A DNA stretch of 39,577 nt, from the sequence record MZ648215.1; one strand, 5' to 3'. Shown here piece by piece: positions 1 to 21,364 of this stretch. The stretch comes from Escherichia phage vB_EcoP_IMEP24. The notes under the pieces were generated by a model. That model ran no database searches, was not told the origin of the DNA, and saw only the letters and a list, made by a program, of their open reading frames with translations. Positions within the stretch are counted from its first letter, which is position 1. Every line of letters begins with the position of its first letter. Position numbers and translations under genes: made by a program.

Positions 1-184
1 TCTCACACTTCAAGAACCTCAAGTCTCCCCCATAGGCCCTCTTTCAGTCCAGACCAAGGGTGGCCCACCTCCAGTCTATCATAGGGTTGGACCGGCTGTC
101 AATATCTCAAGTCAACGATTGGTCATGACTATCGGTGGTGGTGGTGACGATAGGTTGGGACTATTGGTCTGTCTCTGAGTCTTT
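1..184. repeat. Left direct terminal repeat (184 bp), identical to 39394..39577
   Basis: First 184 nt of the window recur exactly at the last 184 nt; T7-like genomes carry direct terminal repeats of this size class. Confidence 0.9.
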
Positions 185-199
185 ATCTGTATAACCATA

Positions 200-279
200 A
201 GTCCAACAACCTACAGTCCAACAACCTACAGTCCAACAACCTACAGTCCAACAACCTACAGTCCAACAACCTACAGTCA
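200..279. repeat. Tandem array, 5 perfect copies of 15-bp unit AGTCCAACAACCTAC, just inside left terminal repeat
   Basis: Read directly: agtccaacaacctac x5 then partial copy; CCTACAGT motif recurs at 302-322 and near right end. Confidence 0.9.
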
Positions 280-577
280 CAGACCATCGGTAAAGCCATT
301 ACCTACAGTCAGAGACCTACAGTTAATAGACACAAAGATATAGACTTAAGGTCAAAGACATGTTAGTCAAAGACTATATCATCTTAGTCACTATGGGGCC
401 GACGATAGCTTAATCAATATTATTTCAAATTAACTATTGACTACAGGTCTCGATTATGGCTTAATAGCTTCCGTCAACACGACACGGCAACAACCGGATA
501 GTGAAGACGCCGGGTCATCCCGGTCAAGTAGACAGCCTGATAAGTCATACGAAAAACAGGCAGATGACAGAAAGTAG

Positions 578-607
578 TTGACAAGCAGTAACGACTTAAA
601 GTAGTAT
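578..607 (+). promoter_or_regulatory. Host sigma70-type early promoter (A1-like)
   Basis: TTGACA 578-583, 18-nt spacer, TAGTAT 602-607; lies in early leader where T7 has A1-A3. Confidence 0.5.
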
Positions 608-725
608 GTACCACGTAGCAAGATGGCGTAGGGATAGGAACCGAGAAACCTGCCCGAGACCAGCCAAGGATAAGGCACTAGCTGTGAGTCGAATTCGGTC
701 ACTCACCGCATAAAAGAATAACAGG

Positions 726-754
726 TTGACAGCCTCCTTTAAAAGCTGTAAGAT
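726..754 (+). promoter_or_regulatory. Host sigma70-type early promoter (A2/A3-like)
   Basis: TTGACA 726-731, 17-nt spacer, TAAGAT 749-754; near-consensus -35 and good -10. Confidence 0.6.
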
Positions 755-932
755 GTACCACACTGAAACGACAGTGAGTCCCAACACTGAAACGGGATAG
801 CACGGCGACGACAGCCAACGCGAATGCTCTTTAACAATCTGGATAAACTCTTAATGTGCGCCGATAGCGACTAACTACAGGGTCTTTGAGTCTACATCTG
901 AAGGCCCTGACTGATAGTCACTAACTTAACGG

Positions 933-1187
933 ATGGACACTATGAAACACTTAAGCACAATCACTAATCACAATGAAATATTCGTGAACACTAAAGGTTA
1001 TGCGTGGATTCAGCTTAAAGAGATGACAGGAGCGCGTCACCGTGTGGTAGTGCGCAAGGTCTCAAGCAAGCCGTTCAGTAACTACAGTGTAGATACTGTG
1101 CGTATAGACAACGAGACCTACCTGATAGACTCGCAGATAACCGTGAGTCCTACAGCGAGCGCCTCAGCTCCTTATTTCGCTAACTGA
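933..1187 (+). CDS. Hypothetical early protein (84 aa)
   Basis: ORF in early region upstream of Ocr-like gene; no recognised similarity; weak SD so start uncertain. Confidence 0.45.
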   Translation: MDTMKHLSTITNHNEIFVNTKGYAWIQLKEMTGARHRVVVRKVSSKPFSNYSVDTVRIDNETYLIDSQITVSPTASASAPYFAN

Positions 1188-1274
1188 GAGTGATTAACTA
1201 CAGGTCGTTAGACTCATAGCGGCCTGACTGATAGTCACTAACACACACACGATTAACTTTGAGAGGATATAACT

Positions 1275-1835
1275 ATGGAACGTAACGCTAACGCATACTA
1301 TGAGCTGCTGGCTGCAACCGTTAAAGCATTTAACGAGCGTATTCAGTACGACGAAATAGCTGAAGGCGATGACTACAGCGATGCGCTACATGAGGTCGTA
1401 GACGGTATGGTTCCGCACTATTACCACGAGATTTTCACGGTGATGGCTGCTGATGGTATAGACCACGAGTTTGAGGACTCTGGGCTGATGCCTGATACCA
1501 AAGACGTAACGCGTATACTGCAAGCTCGCATCTATGAGGCGCTTTATAACGACGTGTCTGATAGCTCGGATGTGGTATGGTTTGAGGCTGAAGAGAGCGA
1601 CGAAGAGGATGAATATTGGGTAGTTGACGCTAAAACAGGACTAATCATTGCGCAAGCTGTACCACTTAAAGACGCTATTGCGGTAAGTCGCAGTCCCTCT
1701 AAGGTAATAACAGGGGACACATACCACCTTGCAGGAAAGGACTTCAAGTCCAAAGACGAGGCGATACGCTATGCGGTTGAGCTTGCTGGCGGTCTTACTG
1801 TGACCAAGATGACAACCATCGCGGTGGAAGTGTAG
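1275..1835 (+). CDS. ocr: Ocr-like anti-restriction DNA mimic (T7 gene 0.3 homolog) with ~70-aa C-terminal extension
   Basis: N-terminal ~115 aa match T7 Ocr ([43 protein letters not shown], acidic stretch [11 protein letters not shown]); RBS gagagga upstream; 186 aa vs 117 aa in T7. Confidence 0.85.
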
Positions 1836-1908
1836 GAGTGATAGACGAGAGGTCATCTAACTGATAGGTGGCCTCAAAGATTACCACTTAAATTGATAGG
1901 AGTTAACT

Positions 1909-1998
1909 ATGAACGTCGGTTACTGGGTGTGCTTATCTCCGGTCATCTTTCTGATAGCTTGGGGCCTTCTGGACGCAATCAAGCGAGGGTCATTCTAA
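1909..1998 (+). CDS. Small hydrophobic peptide (29 aa), early gene
   Basis: ATG 6 nt after AGGAG (1898-1902); MNVGYWVCLSPVIFLIAWGLLDAIKRGSF; stop overlaps next ATG (TAATG). Confidence 0.4.
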   Translation: MNVGYWVCLSPVIFLIAWGLLDAIKRGSF

Positions 1999-2195
1999 TG
2001 AGCTGGATACTTCTGGTTATCTTAGGTTATGGACTTATCACCTACGTGCTGGTGAGAGACATCAACAAAGCGCGTAAAGTCTACAAATTCAACTATGTAC
2101 GTCTGGGTCGCTGGACTGTAAGACAACCTAATGGACGATTCACACGAAACCTCGCGAACGTCTGGGATATAGCAACTCTTGGGAGCAAACTGTAA
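1998..2195 (+). CDS. Small membrane protein (65 aa), early gene
   Basis: ATG coupled to upstream stop; hydrophobic segment WILLVILGYGLITYVLV; preferred over the TTG start at 1893 in the ORF track, which lacks an RBS. Confidence 0.45.
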   Translation: MSWILLVILGYGLITYVLVRDINKARKVYKFNYVRLGRWTVRQPNGRFTRNLANVWDIATLGSKL

Positions 2196-2521
2196 TGAAC
2201 AAGTCATACGGGATTAATCTGGTACACTCTATGGACGCAGAAATGAACATGTTAAGCCTACTGGCTACCGGGTATCGTCACGGGACGTCAAGTCACACCG
2301 CACGTCAACAACAGGAGCGCGACCGTGTACTTCAGGCACGACTCCGGGCCGAGGGCCATAAGTCTGAGCTGATGTGTCTGGCGTATGGTGGGCGACCAAT
2401 CACCGACGATGGTAAACTTCTGGTCTCAGGCTGGAAGGCGATAGACCAACGGTCAACCATCAAGCACACGACTCATGGTGACTTCAGTCATCTTCACGCT
2501 AACCCTCTGATATGCAAGTAA
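2195..2521 (+). CDS. Hypothetical early protein (108 aa)
   Basis: ORF with stop-start overlap (TAATGA) in the slot where T7 has genes 0.5-0.7; no kinase motifs. Confidence 0.5.
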   Translation: MNKSYGINLVHSMDAEMNMLSLLATGYRHGTSSHTARQQQERDRVLQARLRAEGHKSELMCLAYGGRPITDDGKLLVSGWKAIDQRSTIKHTTHGDFSHLHANPLICK

Positions 2522-2526
2522 TTCTG

Positions 2527-2549
2527 ACTTAACTATCACTATAGGACTC
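2527..2549 (+). promoter_or_regulatory. Phage RNAP promoter (class II type) upstream of RNAP gene
   Basis: cttaactatcactatagga, +1 G at 2544; matches the 12-member consensus in this genome. Confidence 0.7.
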
Positions 2550-2618
2550 AAGGTCTAAGACTCCAAGTGAAAGACCAAAGAGACTTTAAGTGAAAGACTA
2601 ATAACAAGGACTTTAAGT

Positions 2619-5300
2619 ATGAGCGTCATCTCTATTGACAAACACGACTTCTCTGATGTGTCGAACGCCATTGAGCCGTTTAACCTGCTGGCTGACCACT
2701 ATGGGCAAGACCTTGCAGTCAAGCAGCTTCAGCTTGAGCATGAGGCATACACTGAAGGTGAGCGACGTTTCATTAAGAACCTTGAGCGCCAGACCGAGCG
2801 CGGGGAACTGGCAGACAATCAGGTCGCTAAACCTCTGATGCAAACGCTGGTTCCGACCATCGCTAAGGCTTTCCGTGAGTGGCATGAAGGCCCGGAAGGT
2901 AAGTCATCGACCTCGCGTCCAAGCGTAGCGTTTACCATGCTGAGCACTGACGAGAAGGCTGTAAAAGACCGCTCTCTGCTAATCTCTGCGGAGTCTGCTG
3001 CGGTTATCATACTGAAGGTCATCCTCTCCAAGCTGGTCAAGCCTGAAGGGATACCGATAACTCCTATGGCATCCGCGATAGGTCGCACACTGGAAGATGA
3101 AATCCGCTTTGGTCGCATACGTGAGCAGGAGCAGGAGCACTTCAAGAAGACCATAGCGGAGAACCTGAAGAAACGCGCTGGCGCAAGCTACAAGAAAGCC
3201 TACATGCAGGCAGTCGAGGCGTCTATGCTTGAGCAGGGGCAACTGGCTGACGCTTGGGGGACTTGGAGTCCTACCGAGGCGGTACACGTTGGCATCAAGA
3301 TGCTTGAGATTGTCATCCAGTCCACACAACTGGTCGAGCTTAAGCGTTATGGTGCTGGCAATGCGGCGGCTGACGTTGAGATGGTCCACCTGTCAGACTT
3401 CTGGGTCAAGAAGATGGCACAACGTGGATTCAGCCTTGCGGGTATCGCACCAGTCTATCAACCTTGCGTCGTTCCACCTAAGCCGTGGACGGGTGTCGTA
3501 GGCGGTGGGTACTGGGCCAAAGGTCGCAGACCGTTACCATTGATTCGCTTAGGGTCTAAGTCTGCGGTAGCACGTTACGAAGACGTGTACATGCCTGAAG
3601 TCTATGACGCTGTGAACATCATTCAGAATACACCTTGGAAAGTTAACAAGAAGGTTCTGGACGTGGTGAACATGGTCGAGAAGCTGAACAACACGCCTAT
3701 TGATGACATCCCTCAAATGGAACCACTGAAGCCTGAGGACTATGCGGGTGAGACTGAAGAAGAACTCAAGGCATGGAAGAAAGCTGCTGCTGGTATCTAT
3801 CGCCGCGAGAAGGCCCGACAGTCACGCAGATTGTCGCTGAGTTTTATCGTCAGCCAAGCGAACAAGTTCTCGCAGTTTAAGGCTATCTGGTTCCCGTACA
3901 ACATGGATTGGCGCGGTCGCGTCTACGCTGTACCGATGTTCAACCCTCAGGGTAACGACATGCAGAAAGGTCTCCTGACTCTGGCAGTCGGAAAGCCTAT
4001 TGGCGCTGATGGTTTCAAATGGCTGAAGGTCCACGGTGCAAACTGTGCGGGTGTCGATAAAGTCACCTTCGAGGAGCGCATCAAGTGGGTGGAAGACAAC
4101 CACGACAACATCATGTCTACCGCTAAGGCCCCGATGGACAGCATTGAGTGGTGGGGTAAGTTAGACTCTCCTTTCTGCTTCCTAGCGTTCTGCTTCGAGT
4201 ATGCTGGCGTAATGCATCACGGCCTGTCTTACTCCTGCTCGTTGCCGATAGCGTTCGATGGGTCCTGCTCTGGGATTCAGCACTTCAGCGCGATGCTTCG
4301 TGACCACATCGGTGGACATGCAGTAAACCTGACGCCTTCCGGTAAGGTTCAAGACATCTACCGCATCGTGTCTGACCGCATTGAGGAGGAGCTTAAAGTC
4401 CTGCTGGTTAACGGTACGGACAACGAGATGGTCACTCACGAGGATAAGAAAACTGGTGAGATTACCGAACGTCTCAAGCTGGGGACACGAGAGCTGGCCC
4501 GGCAGTGGCTGACTTACGGTATGTCACGCAAGGTAACTAAGCGTTCGGTCATGACTCTGGCCTACGGGTCGAAAGAGTACGGATTCGCAGACCAAGTTTA
4601 CGAGGACATCGTGATGCCAGCGATTGACTCAGGGTCCGGCGCTATGTTCACTGAACCAAGCCAAGCGTCTCGCTTCATGGCTAAGATGATTTGGGAAGCT
4701 GTTAGTGTGACCGTAGTTGCTGCGGTTGACGCGATGAAGTGGCTTCAAGGTGCTGCCAAGCTGCTGGCTGCTGAAGTGAAGGACAAGAAGACTGGCGAAA
4801 TCCTGAAGCCATGTCTTCCGGTACACTGGGTCACACCTGATGGTTTCCCGGTCTGGCAGGAATACCGCAAGAAAGATACCACTCGTCTGAACCTGATGTT
4901 CTTAGGGTCATTCAACCTTCAGCCTACGGTCAACAAAGGCACGAAGAAAGAGCTGGACAAGCACAAGCAGGAGTCAGGCATTAGCCCGAACTTCGTCCAC
5001 TCACAAGATGGTAGCCACCTGCGCAAGACTGTAGTCCACACGCACCGCAAGTATGGCGTGATGTCGTTCGCAGTGATCCACGATAGCTTCGGGACCATCC
5101 CGGCTGACGCTGAGTATCTGTTCCGTGGCGTCCGTGAGACAATGGTTGAGACCTACCGCGACAACGATGTGCTGCTTGACTTCTACGAGCAGTTCGAATA
5201 CCAGCTTCACGAGAGTCAGCGCGATAAGCTGCCTGAGCTTCCGAAGAAAGGTAAACTGAATATCGAAGACATCCTGTCTTCAGACTTTGCATTCGCTTAA
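2619..5300 (+). CDS. Single-subunit DNA-directed RNA polymerase (T7 gene 1 homolog)
   Basis: 893 aa; near-collinear with T7 RNAP incl. KAIWFPYNMDWRGRVYAV, HGANCAGVDK, LPxAFDGSCSGIQHFSAMLRD, VHSQDGSHLRK, IHDSFGT, C-terminal FAFA. Confidence 0.98.
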   Translation: MSVISIDKHDFSDVSNAIEPFNLLADHYGQDLAVKQLQLEHEAYTEGERRFIKNLERQTERGELADNQVAKPLMQTLVPTIAKAFREWHEGPEGKSSTSRPSVAFTMLSTDEKAVKDRSLLISAESAAVIILKVILSKLVKPEGIPITPMASAIGRTLEDEIRFGRIREQEQEHFKKTIAENLKKRAGASYKKAYMQAVEASMLEQGQLADAWGTWSPTEAVHVGIKMLEIVIQSTQLVELKRYGAGNAAADVEMVHLSDFWVKKMAQRGFSLAGIAPVYQPCVVPPKPWTGVVGGGYWAKGRRPLPLIRLGSKSAVARYEDVYMPEVYDAVNIIQNTPWKVNKKVLDVVNMVEKLNNTPIDDIPQMEPLKPEDYAGETEEELKAWKKAAAGIYRREKARQSRRLSLSFIVSQANKFSQFKAIWFPYNMDWRGRVYAVPMFNPQGNDMQKGLLTLAVGKPIGADGFKWLKVHGANCAGVDKVTFEERIKWVEDNHDNIMSTAKAPMDSIEWWGKLDSPFCFLAFCFEYAGVMHHGLSYSCSLPIAFDGSCSGIQHFSAMLRDHIGGHAVNLTPSGKVQDIYRIVSDRIEEELKVLLVNGTDNEMVTHEDKKTGEITERLKLGTRELARQWLTYGMSRKVTKRSVMTLAYGSKEYGFADQVYEDIVMPAIDSGSGAMFTEPSQASRFMAKMIWEAVSVTVVAAVDAMKWLQGAAKLLAAEVKDKKTGEILKPCLPVHWVTPDGFPVWQEYRKKDTTRLNLMFLGSFNLQPTVNKGTKKELDKHKQESGISPNFVHSQDGSHLRKTVVHTHRKYGVMSFAVIHDSFGTIPADAEYLFRGVRETMVETYRDNDVLLDFYEQFEYQLHESQRDKLPELPKKGKLNIEDILSSDFAFA

Positions 5301-5312
5301 CAGGAGAGAGTT

Positions 5313-5513
5313 ATGAAATTTGCACACAAGCAGACTGGCGTTAATGGCGGGACTCAAATCGTGACTGTAACGGAGCACAACGGGAAGGGTCTGGTGAAGA
5401 CCACGGTCATTCCTACAGAAATGGCAAAGCAGCTTAACGTACCGTTCAAGTGGCTAGTTAAGTTGGTCGAGGAGCGTCACGAGGCAGAACTTAAAGAGGC
5501 AGCAACCAAATGA
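5313..5513 (+). CDS. Hypothetical protein (66 aa)
   Basis: ORF with RBS aggagag 6 nt upstream; sits between RNAP gene and gene 1.1. Confidence 0.5.
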   Translation: MKFAHKQTGVNGGTQIVTVTEHNGKGLVKTTVIPTEMAKQLNVPFKWLVKLVEERHEAELKEAATK

Positions 5514-5591
5514 CAGACCTACAGTTACTGGCCTTGTGGCTGGGAGCACTCGCAGTATTCACTTTAATCCAACGCAGAAGAGGTTAACCTT

Positions 5592-6065
5592 ATGTTCGGT
5601 AAGTCAAAACTTGAAGCACAAATCGAGGAGTTGAGCATGAAGGTGGTATGTTTGAAGCGAGCCGTAGAGGTCCGGGACAAGGACAACGAGCGGCTGAAGG
5701 ATAAGCTCGCTGAAGCCGAGCGTAAGCGCCTAACGCCACCAGCGGCTGTAACCCTCAAGCGTATGGTCGGCATCAAGTTCAAGGCGCTGTTCGATGGTAA
5801 GTATCAGCCCACTGAGTTCAAGATAGGTCTTGGCAAGTGTGGGAAGGTGGTCAACTACTTCGAGGTGACTAAGCGTGAAGACCGGACGCTTACCATTCAC
5901 CAGTATCACACAGACGGGTCGTCTAAGGACTTCGAGTACCGACTCGGAGACATCGACGGTCGCATCCAGTATGACTACGAGCTGATGCAAGTCTACGGCG
6001 AGGAGGCAGAACGTGAGCGAGCGATTCAGGCATTCATGCAAGTAAGACCTCGCATCGTCATCTAA
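5592..6065 (+). CDS. Hypothetical protein (157 aa), coiled-coil N-terminus
   Basis: ORF; stop TAA is embedded in the downstream phage promoter; no recognised similarity. Confidence 0.55.
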   Translation: MFGKSKLEAQIEELSMKVVCLKRAVEVRDKDNERLKDKLAEAERKRLTPPAAVTLKRMVGIKFKALFDGKYQPTEFKIGLGKCGKVVNYFEVTKREDRTLTIHQYHTDGSSKDFEYRLGDIDGRIQYDYELMQVYGEEAERERAIQAFMQVRPRIVI

Positions 6066-6083
6066 ACTATCACTATAGGATTA
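6061..6083 (+). promoter_or_regulatory. Phage RNAP promoter (phi1.1-like)
   Basis: tctaaactatcactatagga, +1 G at 6078. Confidence 0.8.
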
Positions 6084-6124
6084 GACTCAAGGTCATGACT
6101 CAAAGTCGTGGCCTTCATGATTAA
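6081..6124 (+). other. RNase III-type processing hairpin (R1.1-like)
   Basis: TTAGACTCAAGGTCAT..GTGGCCTTCATGATTAA; 10-bp stem with G.U wobbles; same element recurs at 13401 and 36152. Confidence 0.5.
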
Positions 6125-6154
6125 CCCTATAACCTAAACAACTGGAGCTACAAC

Positions 6155-6334
6155 ATGTATCAGAACACTATCAACTTCGAGCGCATCCGTGAACGTCAGC
6201 AGACTGAAGATTATATTCCGAAGGGACGCAAGCTGAACAAGACCAAGCGTGGTGGTGGTGTCAAGGGTGCTTTCCGTAACGCTGAAGGTAAAGACTCTCT
6301 GGTAAACCAAGAGAAATACTTCGTAGGAGCATAA
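6155..6334 (+). CDS. Gene 1.1-like protein (59 aa)
   Basis: Below the ORF track cutoff; RBS ggag; shares KGRKLNKTKR with T7 gp1.1. Confidence 0.65.
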   Translation: MYQNTINFERIRERQQTEDYIPKGRKLNKTKRGGGVKGAFRNAEGKDSLVNQEKYFVGA

Positions 6335-6338
6335 CGCT

Positions 6339-6602
6339 ATGGGCCGACTTTATAGTGGCAACCTAAACGCTTTCAAAGCAGCGTGTAACAGGCTCTATCA
6401 GTTAGACTTCTGCGTGATACAGAAGGATTGGTACGAGGCGCATCTTCGGAAAGAGTGCATGAGACTTCAAGTCGAGGACCGAGCTGGTAACATCTTCGCG
6501 CTTAAGACCTTCGCTCACCACGATGAAGACGTACTGTACAACACTGCAACAGGCTTCCTTAACTGCCTCGCTAACCAACTCGACACATGGAGAAAATCAT
6601 AA
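6339..6602 (+). CDS. Gene 1.2 protein (host dGTPase inhibitor homolog)
   Basis: MGRLYSGNLxAFKAA...HHDEDVL matches T7 gp1.2 along whole length; 87 aa. Confidence 0.85.
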   Translation: MGRLYSGNLNAFKAACNRLYQLDFCVIQKDWYEAHLRKECMRLQVEDRAGNIFALKTFAHHDEDVLYNTATGFLNCLANQLDTWRKS

Positions 6603-7672: not shown

Positions 7673-7710
7673 AACCCAGTGGTCTTCGGACTGCTGGGTT
7701 TCTTTGCTTT
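7673..7710 (+). terminator. Rho-independent terminator (early terminator TE equivalent)
   Basis: AACCCAG..CTGGGTT stem followed by TTCTTTGCTTT; located right after ligase as in T7. Confidence 0.65.
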
Positions 7711-8479: not shown

Positions 8480-8561
8480 GTGGTGCGAGCGTAAATTTGA
8501 AGAGACAGGTAACGTAGATTACCTTGAACTCTATAACCAATGGAAGGAGCGTGGTCTATGA
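8466..8561 (+). CDS. Small ORF (31 aa), gene 1.8 position
   Basis: Short ORF between 1.7 and 2 with stop overlapping gene 2 start; weak RBS; positional call only. Confidence 0.3.
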
Positions 8562-8713
8562 CCGATGAGAAGAAATACATCGTGGAGCTTGAGGGTCGCG
8601 TTCAGTCCTTCGAGGTTCCGGTGTACGCAAAGTCTCTTGAAGAGGCTACCCTGAAGTCCCAAGAGTATGAGGACGCTGGGTTTGTGGTCGGACGGATTCG
8701 TCCTGAGACCTAA
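8558..8713 (+). CDS. gp2-like inhibitor of host RNA polymerase (51 aa)
   Basis: Below ORF track cutoff; [15 protein letters not shown]...[10 protein letters not shown] matches T7 gp2 core; RBS ggaaggag. Confidence 0.8.
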
Positions 8714-13403: not shown

Positions 13404-13440
13404 ACTCAAGGTCATTCACACCGAGTGGCCTTTATGATTA
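13401..13440 (+). other. RNase III-type processing hairpin
   Basis: TAGACTCAAGGTCAT..GTGGCCTTTATGATTA; same box as 6081 and 36152. Confidence 0.5.
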
Positions 13441-21262: not shown

Positions 21263-21364
21263 CCAAGAGACAGACTCAAGGTTTCCCTATTACTTCAGTC
21301 CATACGGATTGGGCATACAGTAAGTAATAAACTTTATCTTTCAATTGAATAGGAGAATTATCAT

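Follow-up and report, generated by a model that had tools for sequence, protein, structure and literature searches.

The 39,577-nucleotide window analysed here (MZ648215.1) comes from Escherichia phage vB_EcoP_IMEP24 and is, judged by its sequence, the complete genome of a T7-like phage of the K1F/EcoDS1 group of Kayfunavirus. We examined the interval between gene 1, which encodes the T7-type RNA polymerase (RNAP), and the phi1.1-type phage promoter, and propose that it forms a compact early cassette whose three protein genes share the 3' part of the gene 1 mRNA: open reading frame (ORF) A, a mini-ORF for a short membrane peptide and ORF B, which encodes a gp1.05-family protein. The anatomy of this cassette is near certain, its functional class much less so. 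We think it probable, though by no means assured, that the interval is a non-essential, host-specific early accessory cassette of protein-binding factors in which ORF A and the peptide are constant and a dimeric gp1.05, situated at or near the inner membrane, is optional.

A sequence-only reading of the window had described two genes, of 66 and 157 aa, inserted at this site. Both lie where it placed them, the peptide it quoted being residues 7-46 of ORF B, and both are real extra genes relative to T7, but the genes number three, the mini-ORF having been missed. The word "inserted" is misleading as well: in both position and sequence ORF B corresponds to T3 gene 1.05, and the EcoDS1 record already annotates a gp1.05 whose end is likewise overlapped by a promoter. 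The same reading had staked the two genes on conservation in relatives and on translation signals, and both are found, in conserved ORFs preceded by Shine-Dalgarno sites.

Three genes between gene 1 and phi1.1

ORF B contains the domain of the T3 gene 1.05 protein. Residues 58-129 align with positions 2-73 of the 73-position Pfam profile PF25755 (E 7.4e-26; 90.4 bits against a gathering cut-off of 27 bits), a profile also matched by 105 of 107 aligned relatives. The pattern F-K-x-G-x-G-x-C-G...Q...K-x-F-x-Y...G-R holds across these 107 diverse gp1.05-family sequences, and the core residues F76, K77, G79, G81, C83, G84, V87, Q104, K112, F114, Y116, G123 and R124, each at least 90% conserved in the alignment, are all present in ORF B. 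The domain was found by tblastn in 582 phage records, an exhaustive family search returned 97 clusters (50% identity) at E <=0.001, and the ratio of nonsynonymous to synonymous substitution rates (dN/dS) for the domain is 0.13-0.28. T3 gp1.05, which has counterparts in phiYeO3-12, phiSG-JL2 and vB_YenP_AP5, is 37% identical to ORF B over residues 55-129 and shares with it the motif TEFK-x-G-x-G-x-CGK-x-V...Q...K-x-F-x-Y...GR. At 90 aa the T3 protein is essentially the domain alone, whereas ORF B adds a 50-residue coiled-coil stalk before it and a helix after it. In tblastn the alignment to T3 continued beyond the stop codon of the T3 gene; that extension was set aside as nucleotide-level conservation of the phi1.1/R1.1 region, not protein homology.

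The AlphaFold2 model of ORF B, built on the 107-sequence alignment, has a mean predicted local distance difference test score (pLDDT) of 86.4, with a single N-terminal helix (pLDDT ~95) followed by six antiparallel strands. The coiled-coil-type N-terminus noticed in the sequence-only reading is borne out by this helix and by its continuous heptads (L7, I11, L14, V18, L21, V25, N32, L35, L39), which, with Asn32 at an "a" position, suggest a parallel dimer. A Foldseek search of the PDB with the whole ORF B model, the beta domain not being searched alone, gave nothing below E 0.046, and the PH-like, bL19 and Ig-like folds among its weak matches were rejected at TM-scores of at most 0.38; the beta domain as modelled is thus without a recognisable solved relative. 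ORF A and ORF B share a reading frame, and a read-through fusion of the two was discarded on an in-frame TAA in the spacer. The Shine-Dalgarno site of ORF B, AGAGG at 5579-5583, lies 8 nt before its ATG.

Three architectures occur in the gp1.05 family: the domain alone, as in T3; a coiled coil and the domain, as in IMEP24; and a transmembrane (TM) helix, coiled coil and domain, as in Klebsiella phages and others. An N-terminal hydrophobic helix (17-residue Kyte-Doolittle window of at least 1.9) is present in 86 of 179 family proteins, and a TM helix followed by a coiled coil in 79 of the 112 long members. In Przondovirus (KP32/Pharr-type Klebsiella phages) the same C-terminal domain follows a coiled coil in a protein encoded directly after the RNAP gene and before gene 1.1, and bearing its N-terminal TM helix in the same chain; IMEP24 instead has a separate 25-aa TM ORF upstream of ORF B. 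This slot is thus occupied in T3-like, Kayfunavirus and Przondovirus phages alike, and T7 is the one without the gene. Some family proteins (P0393, P0417 and P0419) have ~60-90 extra residues inserted midway through the beta domain, after the CGK motif and before the K-x-F-x-Y motif. The Klebsiella homologues bear the label "fusion protein" on no evident grounds, and ORF B homologues in MK610268, MT808983, MW748991 and MZ223858 are labelled "microtubule-binding protein", a label that by its matches is a coiled-coil similarity artefact, the sole ones being weak and to eukaryotic coiled-coil families.

The mini-ORF joins the two longer genes. Its ATG at 5510 overlaps the ORF A TGA as ATGA, and 4 nt separate its stop codon (5585-5587) from the ORF B ATG; the overlap probably couples its translation to that of ORF A. 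In all 22 Kayfunavirus-type loci examined it is intact at 25 codons, with changes of the synonymous type, including alternative codons for the Q-R-R-R-G tail (caa-aga-cgc-aga-ggc in locus L027), and a dN/dS of 0-0.29. Its Kyte-Doolittle maximum of 2.24 (17-residue window) is hydrophobic enough for one TM helix, and the product is predicted to be a single-pass inner-membrane peptide. Where ORF B is lacking the mini-ORF is kept and the promoter directly follows (..gaggTTAAcCTAAACTATCACTATAGG). In Kayfunavirus the gene is almost universally unannotated: an exact-sequence look-up in a protein collection found one allele, MTDLKWLALWLAFLAVYTLIQRRRG, annotated in phage GA2A only, and did not find the version in the window or the three other alleles tested.

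ORF A matches PHROG 8082 over its full length (E 1.6e-39; residues 1-66 on profile positions 1-66) and has no Pfam match. At the protein level its homologues number 219 phage records, all Kayfunavirus-type, plus two divergent metagenomic forms of 79 aa; its length is nearly always exactly 66 aa, with C-terminally extended variants of 71 and 79 aa. Residues M1, F3, A4, H5, V10, G12, G13, V17, T18, V19, G24, L27, K29, P34, K39, K46, H56 and E57 are invariant, and a dN/dS of 0.02-0.22 indicates purifying selection, as do the ratios for the other two genes. The Shine-Dalgarno sites are conserved among relatives; that of ORF A is AGGAG at 5302-5306, 6 nt before the ATG. AlphaFold2 predicts strands at 2-10, 14-22 and 28-34 and helices at 35-41 and 45-65 (mean pLDDT 82.9). 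A profile search with concatenated ORF A and ORF B-domain sequences gave ORF B relatives and just two divergent ORF A homologues, so that this model was made on a shallow alignment (79-100% identity). Fold and weak sequence matches to an RNase H-like or retroviral integrase core were rejected, as ORF A does not have the five-stranded mixed sheet with a conserved acidic catalytic triad.

Kayfunavirus records name these genes inconsistently, "1.05" denoting ORF A in some and ORF B in others. The EcoDS1 gp1.05 is the ORF B orthologue (74% identical), and the ORF mislabelled "gp1.1" in EcoDS1, like the K1F ORF after gene 1 ("unknown" or "gp1.1"), is an ORF A orthologue (80-82% identical). Direct orthologues are also annotated as "1.05" in CR44b and CR8, "gp1.06" in Dev2 and gp10 in GA2A.

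Table 1. Features of the cassette and of the early region around it (positions in the window)
Feature	Position	Strand	Basis or description
ORF A, 66 aa	5313-5513	+	Kayfunavirus-specific small soluble protein, beta3-alpha2, function unknown
Mini-ORF, 25 aa, MTDLQLLALWLGALAVFTLIQRRRG	5510-5587	+	One transmembrane helix, basic tail; fills the 78-nt "gap" between ORF A and ORF B
ORF B, 157 aa, gp1.05-family protein	5592-6065	+	Coiled-coil helix 2-47, six-stranded beta domain 53-134, C-terminal helix 136-150
phi1.1-type phage promoter	6061-6083, +1 at 6078	+	Consensus; overlaps final 5 nt of ORF B
R1.1-type hairpin, presumed RNase III site, 5' end of phi1.1 transcript	6078-6127	+	Homology to T3 R1.1
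Gene 1, T7-type RNA polymerase, 893 aa	2619-5300	+	ORF; homologues annotated as RNA polymerase in relatives
Phage promoter upstream of gene 1	2527-2549, +1 at 2544	+	Exact match to ACTATCACTATAGG
Two sigma-70-type early promoter candidates	578-607 and 726-754	+	Each 10/12 consensus positions; consensus matches only
Gene 1.1	6155-6334	+	Pfam PF08200, E 1e-10
Early terminator TE, 3' of ligase gene	7673-7710 (hairpin 7673-7700)	+	12-bp stem, then T run

Allele exchange and loss of gene 1.05

The cassette varies far more than its conserved flanks, between which each of its three genes has had its alleles shuffled. Protein identity among Kayfunavirus loci is 90-100% over the last 99 codons of gene 1 and mostly 91-98% for gp1.1 (74% in the two most divergent, K1F and Kc166A), against 45-97% for ORF A and 50-83% for ORF B, which vary independently of each other. 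In pairs of phages whose flanks have a synonymous divergence (dS) of ~0.1-0.2, that of ORF A is saturated; saturation between flanks of low dS means that old alleles were swapped in by recombination and that ORF A has not been evolving fast in place. The three parts of ORF B, coiled coil, domain and tail, have differing histories. ORF A lies directly 3' of gene 1 in its relatives except in EcoDS1 (locus L001, 1617-1847) and one metagenomic phage (L016), where an extra ORF of 76 aa (MSMKLVAHNKAFNDGSGRCHVELTYKD...) without a family match intervenes, so the site directly 3' of gene 1 accepts additional cassettes.

Every Kayfunavirus-type locus read contains ORF A and the mini-ORF. The same does not hold for ORF B: in 60 evenly spaced records from the 223 of the genus, the junction is cleanly ORF B-less in 32 and holds an ORF B-sized insert in 23. 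Gene 1.05 is evidently dispensable, being missing from about half of the sequenced Kayfunaviruses. K1F differs from IMEP24 in this way, and vB_EcoP_F and the Enterobacter phage vB_Ecl_MII_004 are without ORF B as well. In the last of these (L022, 1698-1960) the phi1.1-type promoter and the R1.1 hairpin are deleted together with ORF B, and gene 1.1 begins 2 nt past the mini-ORF stop, reusing the ORF B Shine-Dalgarno site. Elsewhere the gene is broken, by an in-frame amber codon (codon 71, TAT to TAG) in Citrobacter phage SH3 (L007, 2501-2971) and by a split into ORFs of 38 and 99 aa in phage Peacock (L023, 708-1169). Fragment-length gp1.05 clusters also stand among the family representatives (P0241 and P0250-P0252). 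These broken genes and fragments reflect either decay or sequencing errors.

Transcription and the early region

The phage promoter consensus (A/C)CTAAACTATCACTATAGG occurs in 12 copies on the + strand of the window. Its core pattern has 14 matches where 3.4 are expected, a number reached in none of 100 shuffles, and 12 of the 14 are genuine-looking + strand sites. One of these, with its +1 at 2544, lies 75 nt 5' of gene 1, at the place where a "phi" promoter is annotated in EcoDS1. Since this promoter is perfect, the phage polymerase should also be able to transcribe gene 1 and the cassette behind it, which implies positive feedback on gene 1; T7 is not known to have an equivalent upstream of gene 1.

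At the other end of the cassette, the ORF B TAA (6063-6065) occupies positions -15 to -13 of the phi1.1-type promoter, in agreement with the sequence-only reading. T3 and IMEP24 are alike in having gene 1.05 between genes 1 and 1.1, its stop inside phi1.1 and the R1.1 hairpin after it: in T3 ..agTTAACCCTCACTAACGGGAGA.. is followed by aaggtcat..ggcctt..tgattaac, the same design as ..atcTAAACTATCACTATAGG.. followed by aaggtcatgactcaaagtcgtggccttcatgattaac in IMEP24. The full T3 order is gene 1, phi1.05 promoter, primary origin, gene 1.05, phi1.1 over the 1.05 stop, R1.1 and gene 1.1. T3 gene 1.05 thus has its own promoter and a primary origin upstream, whereas in IMEP24 that space is held by ORF A and the mini-ORF and contains no promoter match, the pattern being absent between 2545 and 6066 even with up to 3 mismatches allowed. 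The possibility that a decayed phi1.05 promoter separates ORF A from ORF B was considered and rejected, the best local resemblance covering 7 of 14 positions.

The R1.1-type hairpin has a 12-bp stem at 6089-6115 (minimum free energy -17.8 kcal/mol, z -2.3) and is conserved in relatives, and the aaggtcat...ggcctt..tgattaac motif of its region is the annotated R1.1 of T3; by analogy we presume that it is an RNase III cleavage site. An Rfam search of 5200-6400 gave no RNA element at E <=1. The motif GACTCAAGGTC is repeated on the + strand just 3' of the promoters with +1 at 2544, 6078, 13398 and 21257 (at 2550-2570, 6085-6100, 13405-13420 and 21275-21290), and probably forms the 5' arm of hairpins processed by RNase III.

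The sigma-70-type candidates stand at positions equivalent to those of annotated host RNAP promoters in EcoDS1 and presumably mark the start of the early transcription unit. The hairpin after the ligase gene is the only strong terminator found, at the place where TE is annotated in EcoDS1, and from gene 1 to 6065 no terminator-like site on the + strand exceeds chance. With these promoter sites upstream and the sole convincing terminator downstream, the three cassette genes fall within the early unit, between the host RNAP promoters and TE, as T7-type class I (early) genes do, and the EcoDS1 annotations agree. The co-expression with the polymerase from host promoters that the sequence-only reading had proposed is therefore reasonable, but leaves out the phage promoter upstream of gene 1.

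We envisage that the host RNAP, starting at the early promoters, makes the gene 1 mRNA first, that the phage polymerase makes it later, starting at 2544, and that the RNase III-type hairpin after phi1.1 delimits it. If processing follows the pattern of T7 and T3, the resulting message would run from gene 1 through ORF A and the peptide gene to ORF B, each cassette gene being served by its own ribosome-binding site or by coupling to the preceding gene.

The first 25 kb of the window are ~92-94% identical to Kayfunavirus genomes such as EcoDS1, vB_EcoP_F and P762. Upstream of gene 1, the + strand early region (933-2521) holds an Ocr-like gene (1275-1835, 186 aa) and three ORFs of unknown function; the PHROG profile covers residues 1-120 of the Ocr-like protein, which has a C-terminal extension of ~65 residues. 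No gp0.7 kinase/shut-off gene was found in this region, and a gp2-type RNAP inhibitor gene lies at 8540-8713. Downstream, the gp1.2 gene lies two genes beyond the cassette (Pfam and PHROG matches). Near the left genome end, minus-strand ORF translations at 161-299, such as MTVGCWTVGCWTVGCW..., point to a tandem DNA repeat of ~15 nt in at least 5 copies; short tandem repeats are common beside T7-like terminal repeats.

Possible functions of the cassette

In the accessory-cassette reading that we favour, the products would be host-takeover or anti-defence factors that bind other proteins, not enzymes. The class I small early proteins of T7 (gp0.4, gp0.5, gp0.6, gp1.1 and gp1.2) offer a precedent, being small, mostly non-essential, encoded between the host promoters and TE and engaged in host takeover or anti-exclusion; gp1.2, for example, is a dGTPase inhibitor and F-exclusion target. 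They have no sequence or fold relationship to ORF A, the mini-ORF peptide or gp1.05. The gp1.05 protein would probably be a dimer, with a parallel coiled-coil stalk, the six-stranded beta domain and a C-terminal helix. Since roughly half of its family carries an N-terminal membrane anchor, its probable site of action would be the cytoplasmic side of the inner membrane or close to it. ORF A and the membrane peptide would be the constant pair and gene 1.05 the optional add-on.

Several points weigh against this reading. The most hydrophobic 17-residue window of ORF B scores 0.68, so that ORF B has no TM segment and lacks the architecture with a TM helix in the same polypeptide. A related coiled-coil form (the P0256 lineage) is without an adjacent membrane mini-ORF, and because the mini-ORF persists where ORF B is absent, a functional link between the two is only putative. 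Searches of Pfam, PHROGs, NCBIfam, PADLOC and PDB sequences gave just two families of unknown function and coiled-coil noise: NCBIfam had no match for the cassette proteins and PADLOC none for ORF A, ORF B or T3 gp1.05, with coiled-coil noise for the Pharr homologue. There is no known function for any member of PF25755 or PHROG 8082, and in the literature gp1.05 was found only in genome-annotation tables, with no functional study of it or of the Kayfunavirus ORFs. Finally, transcription, RNase III cutting and translation of the mini-ORF are here deduced from sequence and the T7/T3 paradigm.

The strongest competing idea, which we regard as possible but rather unlikely, is that the 25-aa peptide and ORF B are a two-piece version of the TM-coiled-coil-1.05 protein that Przondovirus and other phages make as one chain, the peptide tethering the gp1.05 dimer non-covalently to the inner membrane. 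The frequency of fused TM helices among the long family members (79 of 112) fits such a split anchor, as does the spacing between the end of the mini-ORF and the start of ORF B, which is 4 nt in all ORF B-carrying loci except L014 and L017, where it is 5 nt; the basic RRRG tail moreover predicts a cytoplasmic C-terminus, the orientation of the fused forms. The mini-ORF is nevertheless intact without ORF B in K1F, vB_EcoP_F and MII_004, it is always ATGA-coupled to ORF A, and no mini-ORF precedes the related form that has a coiled coil and domain but no TM helix.

A broader version seems to us clearly less probable still: that ORF A, the 25-aa peptide and gp1.05 would form one membrane-targeted early host-takeover or anti-defence module, with the peptide a detachable anchor born by gene fission of a TM-coiled-coil-1.05 protein like those of other Studiervirinae, and the beta domain a fold not described before, whose binding partner would be a protein of the host envelope or of host defence. 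If true, a domain that at least 582 sequenced phages encode, T3 among them, would gain its first assigned function.

It is doubtful that the products are regulators, with ORF A a small modulator of the host or phage RNAP and gp1.05 linked to initiation at a nearby primary replication origin. The early region is without a gp0.7 kinase/shut-off gene, though a gp2 homologue is present, and the annotated primary origin of T3 overlaps the start of gene 1.05. The ORF A role, however, derives from one weak fold match, to the small RNAP-binding protein P7 of Xp10 (rank 35, 11% identity), amid dozens of generic beta3-alpha matches, and the swapping of ORF A alleles among phages with nearly identical polymerases is easier to reconcile with a host-facing target than with the phage polymerase as target. 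Replication cannot depend on gene 1.05, which about half of the genus lacks.

We give very little credence to a programmed +1 frameshift at ..AGA AGA GGT TAA C.., which would fuse the membrane peptide to ORF B as a single chain. In the window ORF B does lie in the +1 frame relative to the mini-ORF, and the rare AGA codons and Shine-Dalgarno-like AGAGG before the stop form a site that we take to resemble that of prfB. The re-pairing from GGT to GTT would be poor, however, AGAGG is at the ideal 8 nt to serve as the ORF B Shine-Dalgarno site, and the fusion was rejected on the length of the spacer, which is 4 nt in most loci and 5 nt in L014 and L017, so that the frame relation is not conserved. 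That the frames are non-functional filler, arisen by chance or decaying in a spacer, is hardly credible at all: many relatives have lost ORF B or carry it truncated or split, but the comparative data refute the idea in every lineage for ORF A and the mini-ORF, and for ORF B in the lineages that keep it, with dN/dS well below 1 for all three genes, strict lengths (66 aa, or 71 and 79 with the C-terminal extension, for ORF A and always 25 aa for the peptide), conserved Shine-Dalgarno sites, confident AlphaFold2 models of both larger proteins and the ORF B domain in hundreds of phages.

As a discovery the finding is genuine but ordinary and matters little: the genes, their order and the promoter overlap are in public annotation (EcoDS1, T3), and both proteins are in GenBank as IMEP24 hypothetical proteins and belong to the catalogued families PF25755 and PHROG 8082. 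What the analysis adds is an overlooked micro-ORF, a quantified presence and absence of gene 1.05, cassette-like allele shuffling and confident models without structural relatives, and it clears up a nomenclature in which "1.05", "1.06" and "1.1" denote different ORFs across records. Gene 1.05 emerges as an optional cassette with clean deletion junctions, in a segment 3' of the polymerase gene that is a recombination hot spot with swapped alleles. This is the signature expected of host-range or anti-defence genes and makes the cassette genes reasonable candidates for functional screens in K1F-type therapeutic phages.

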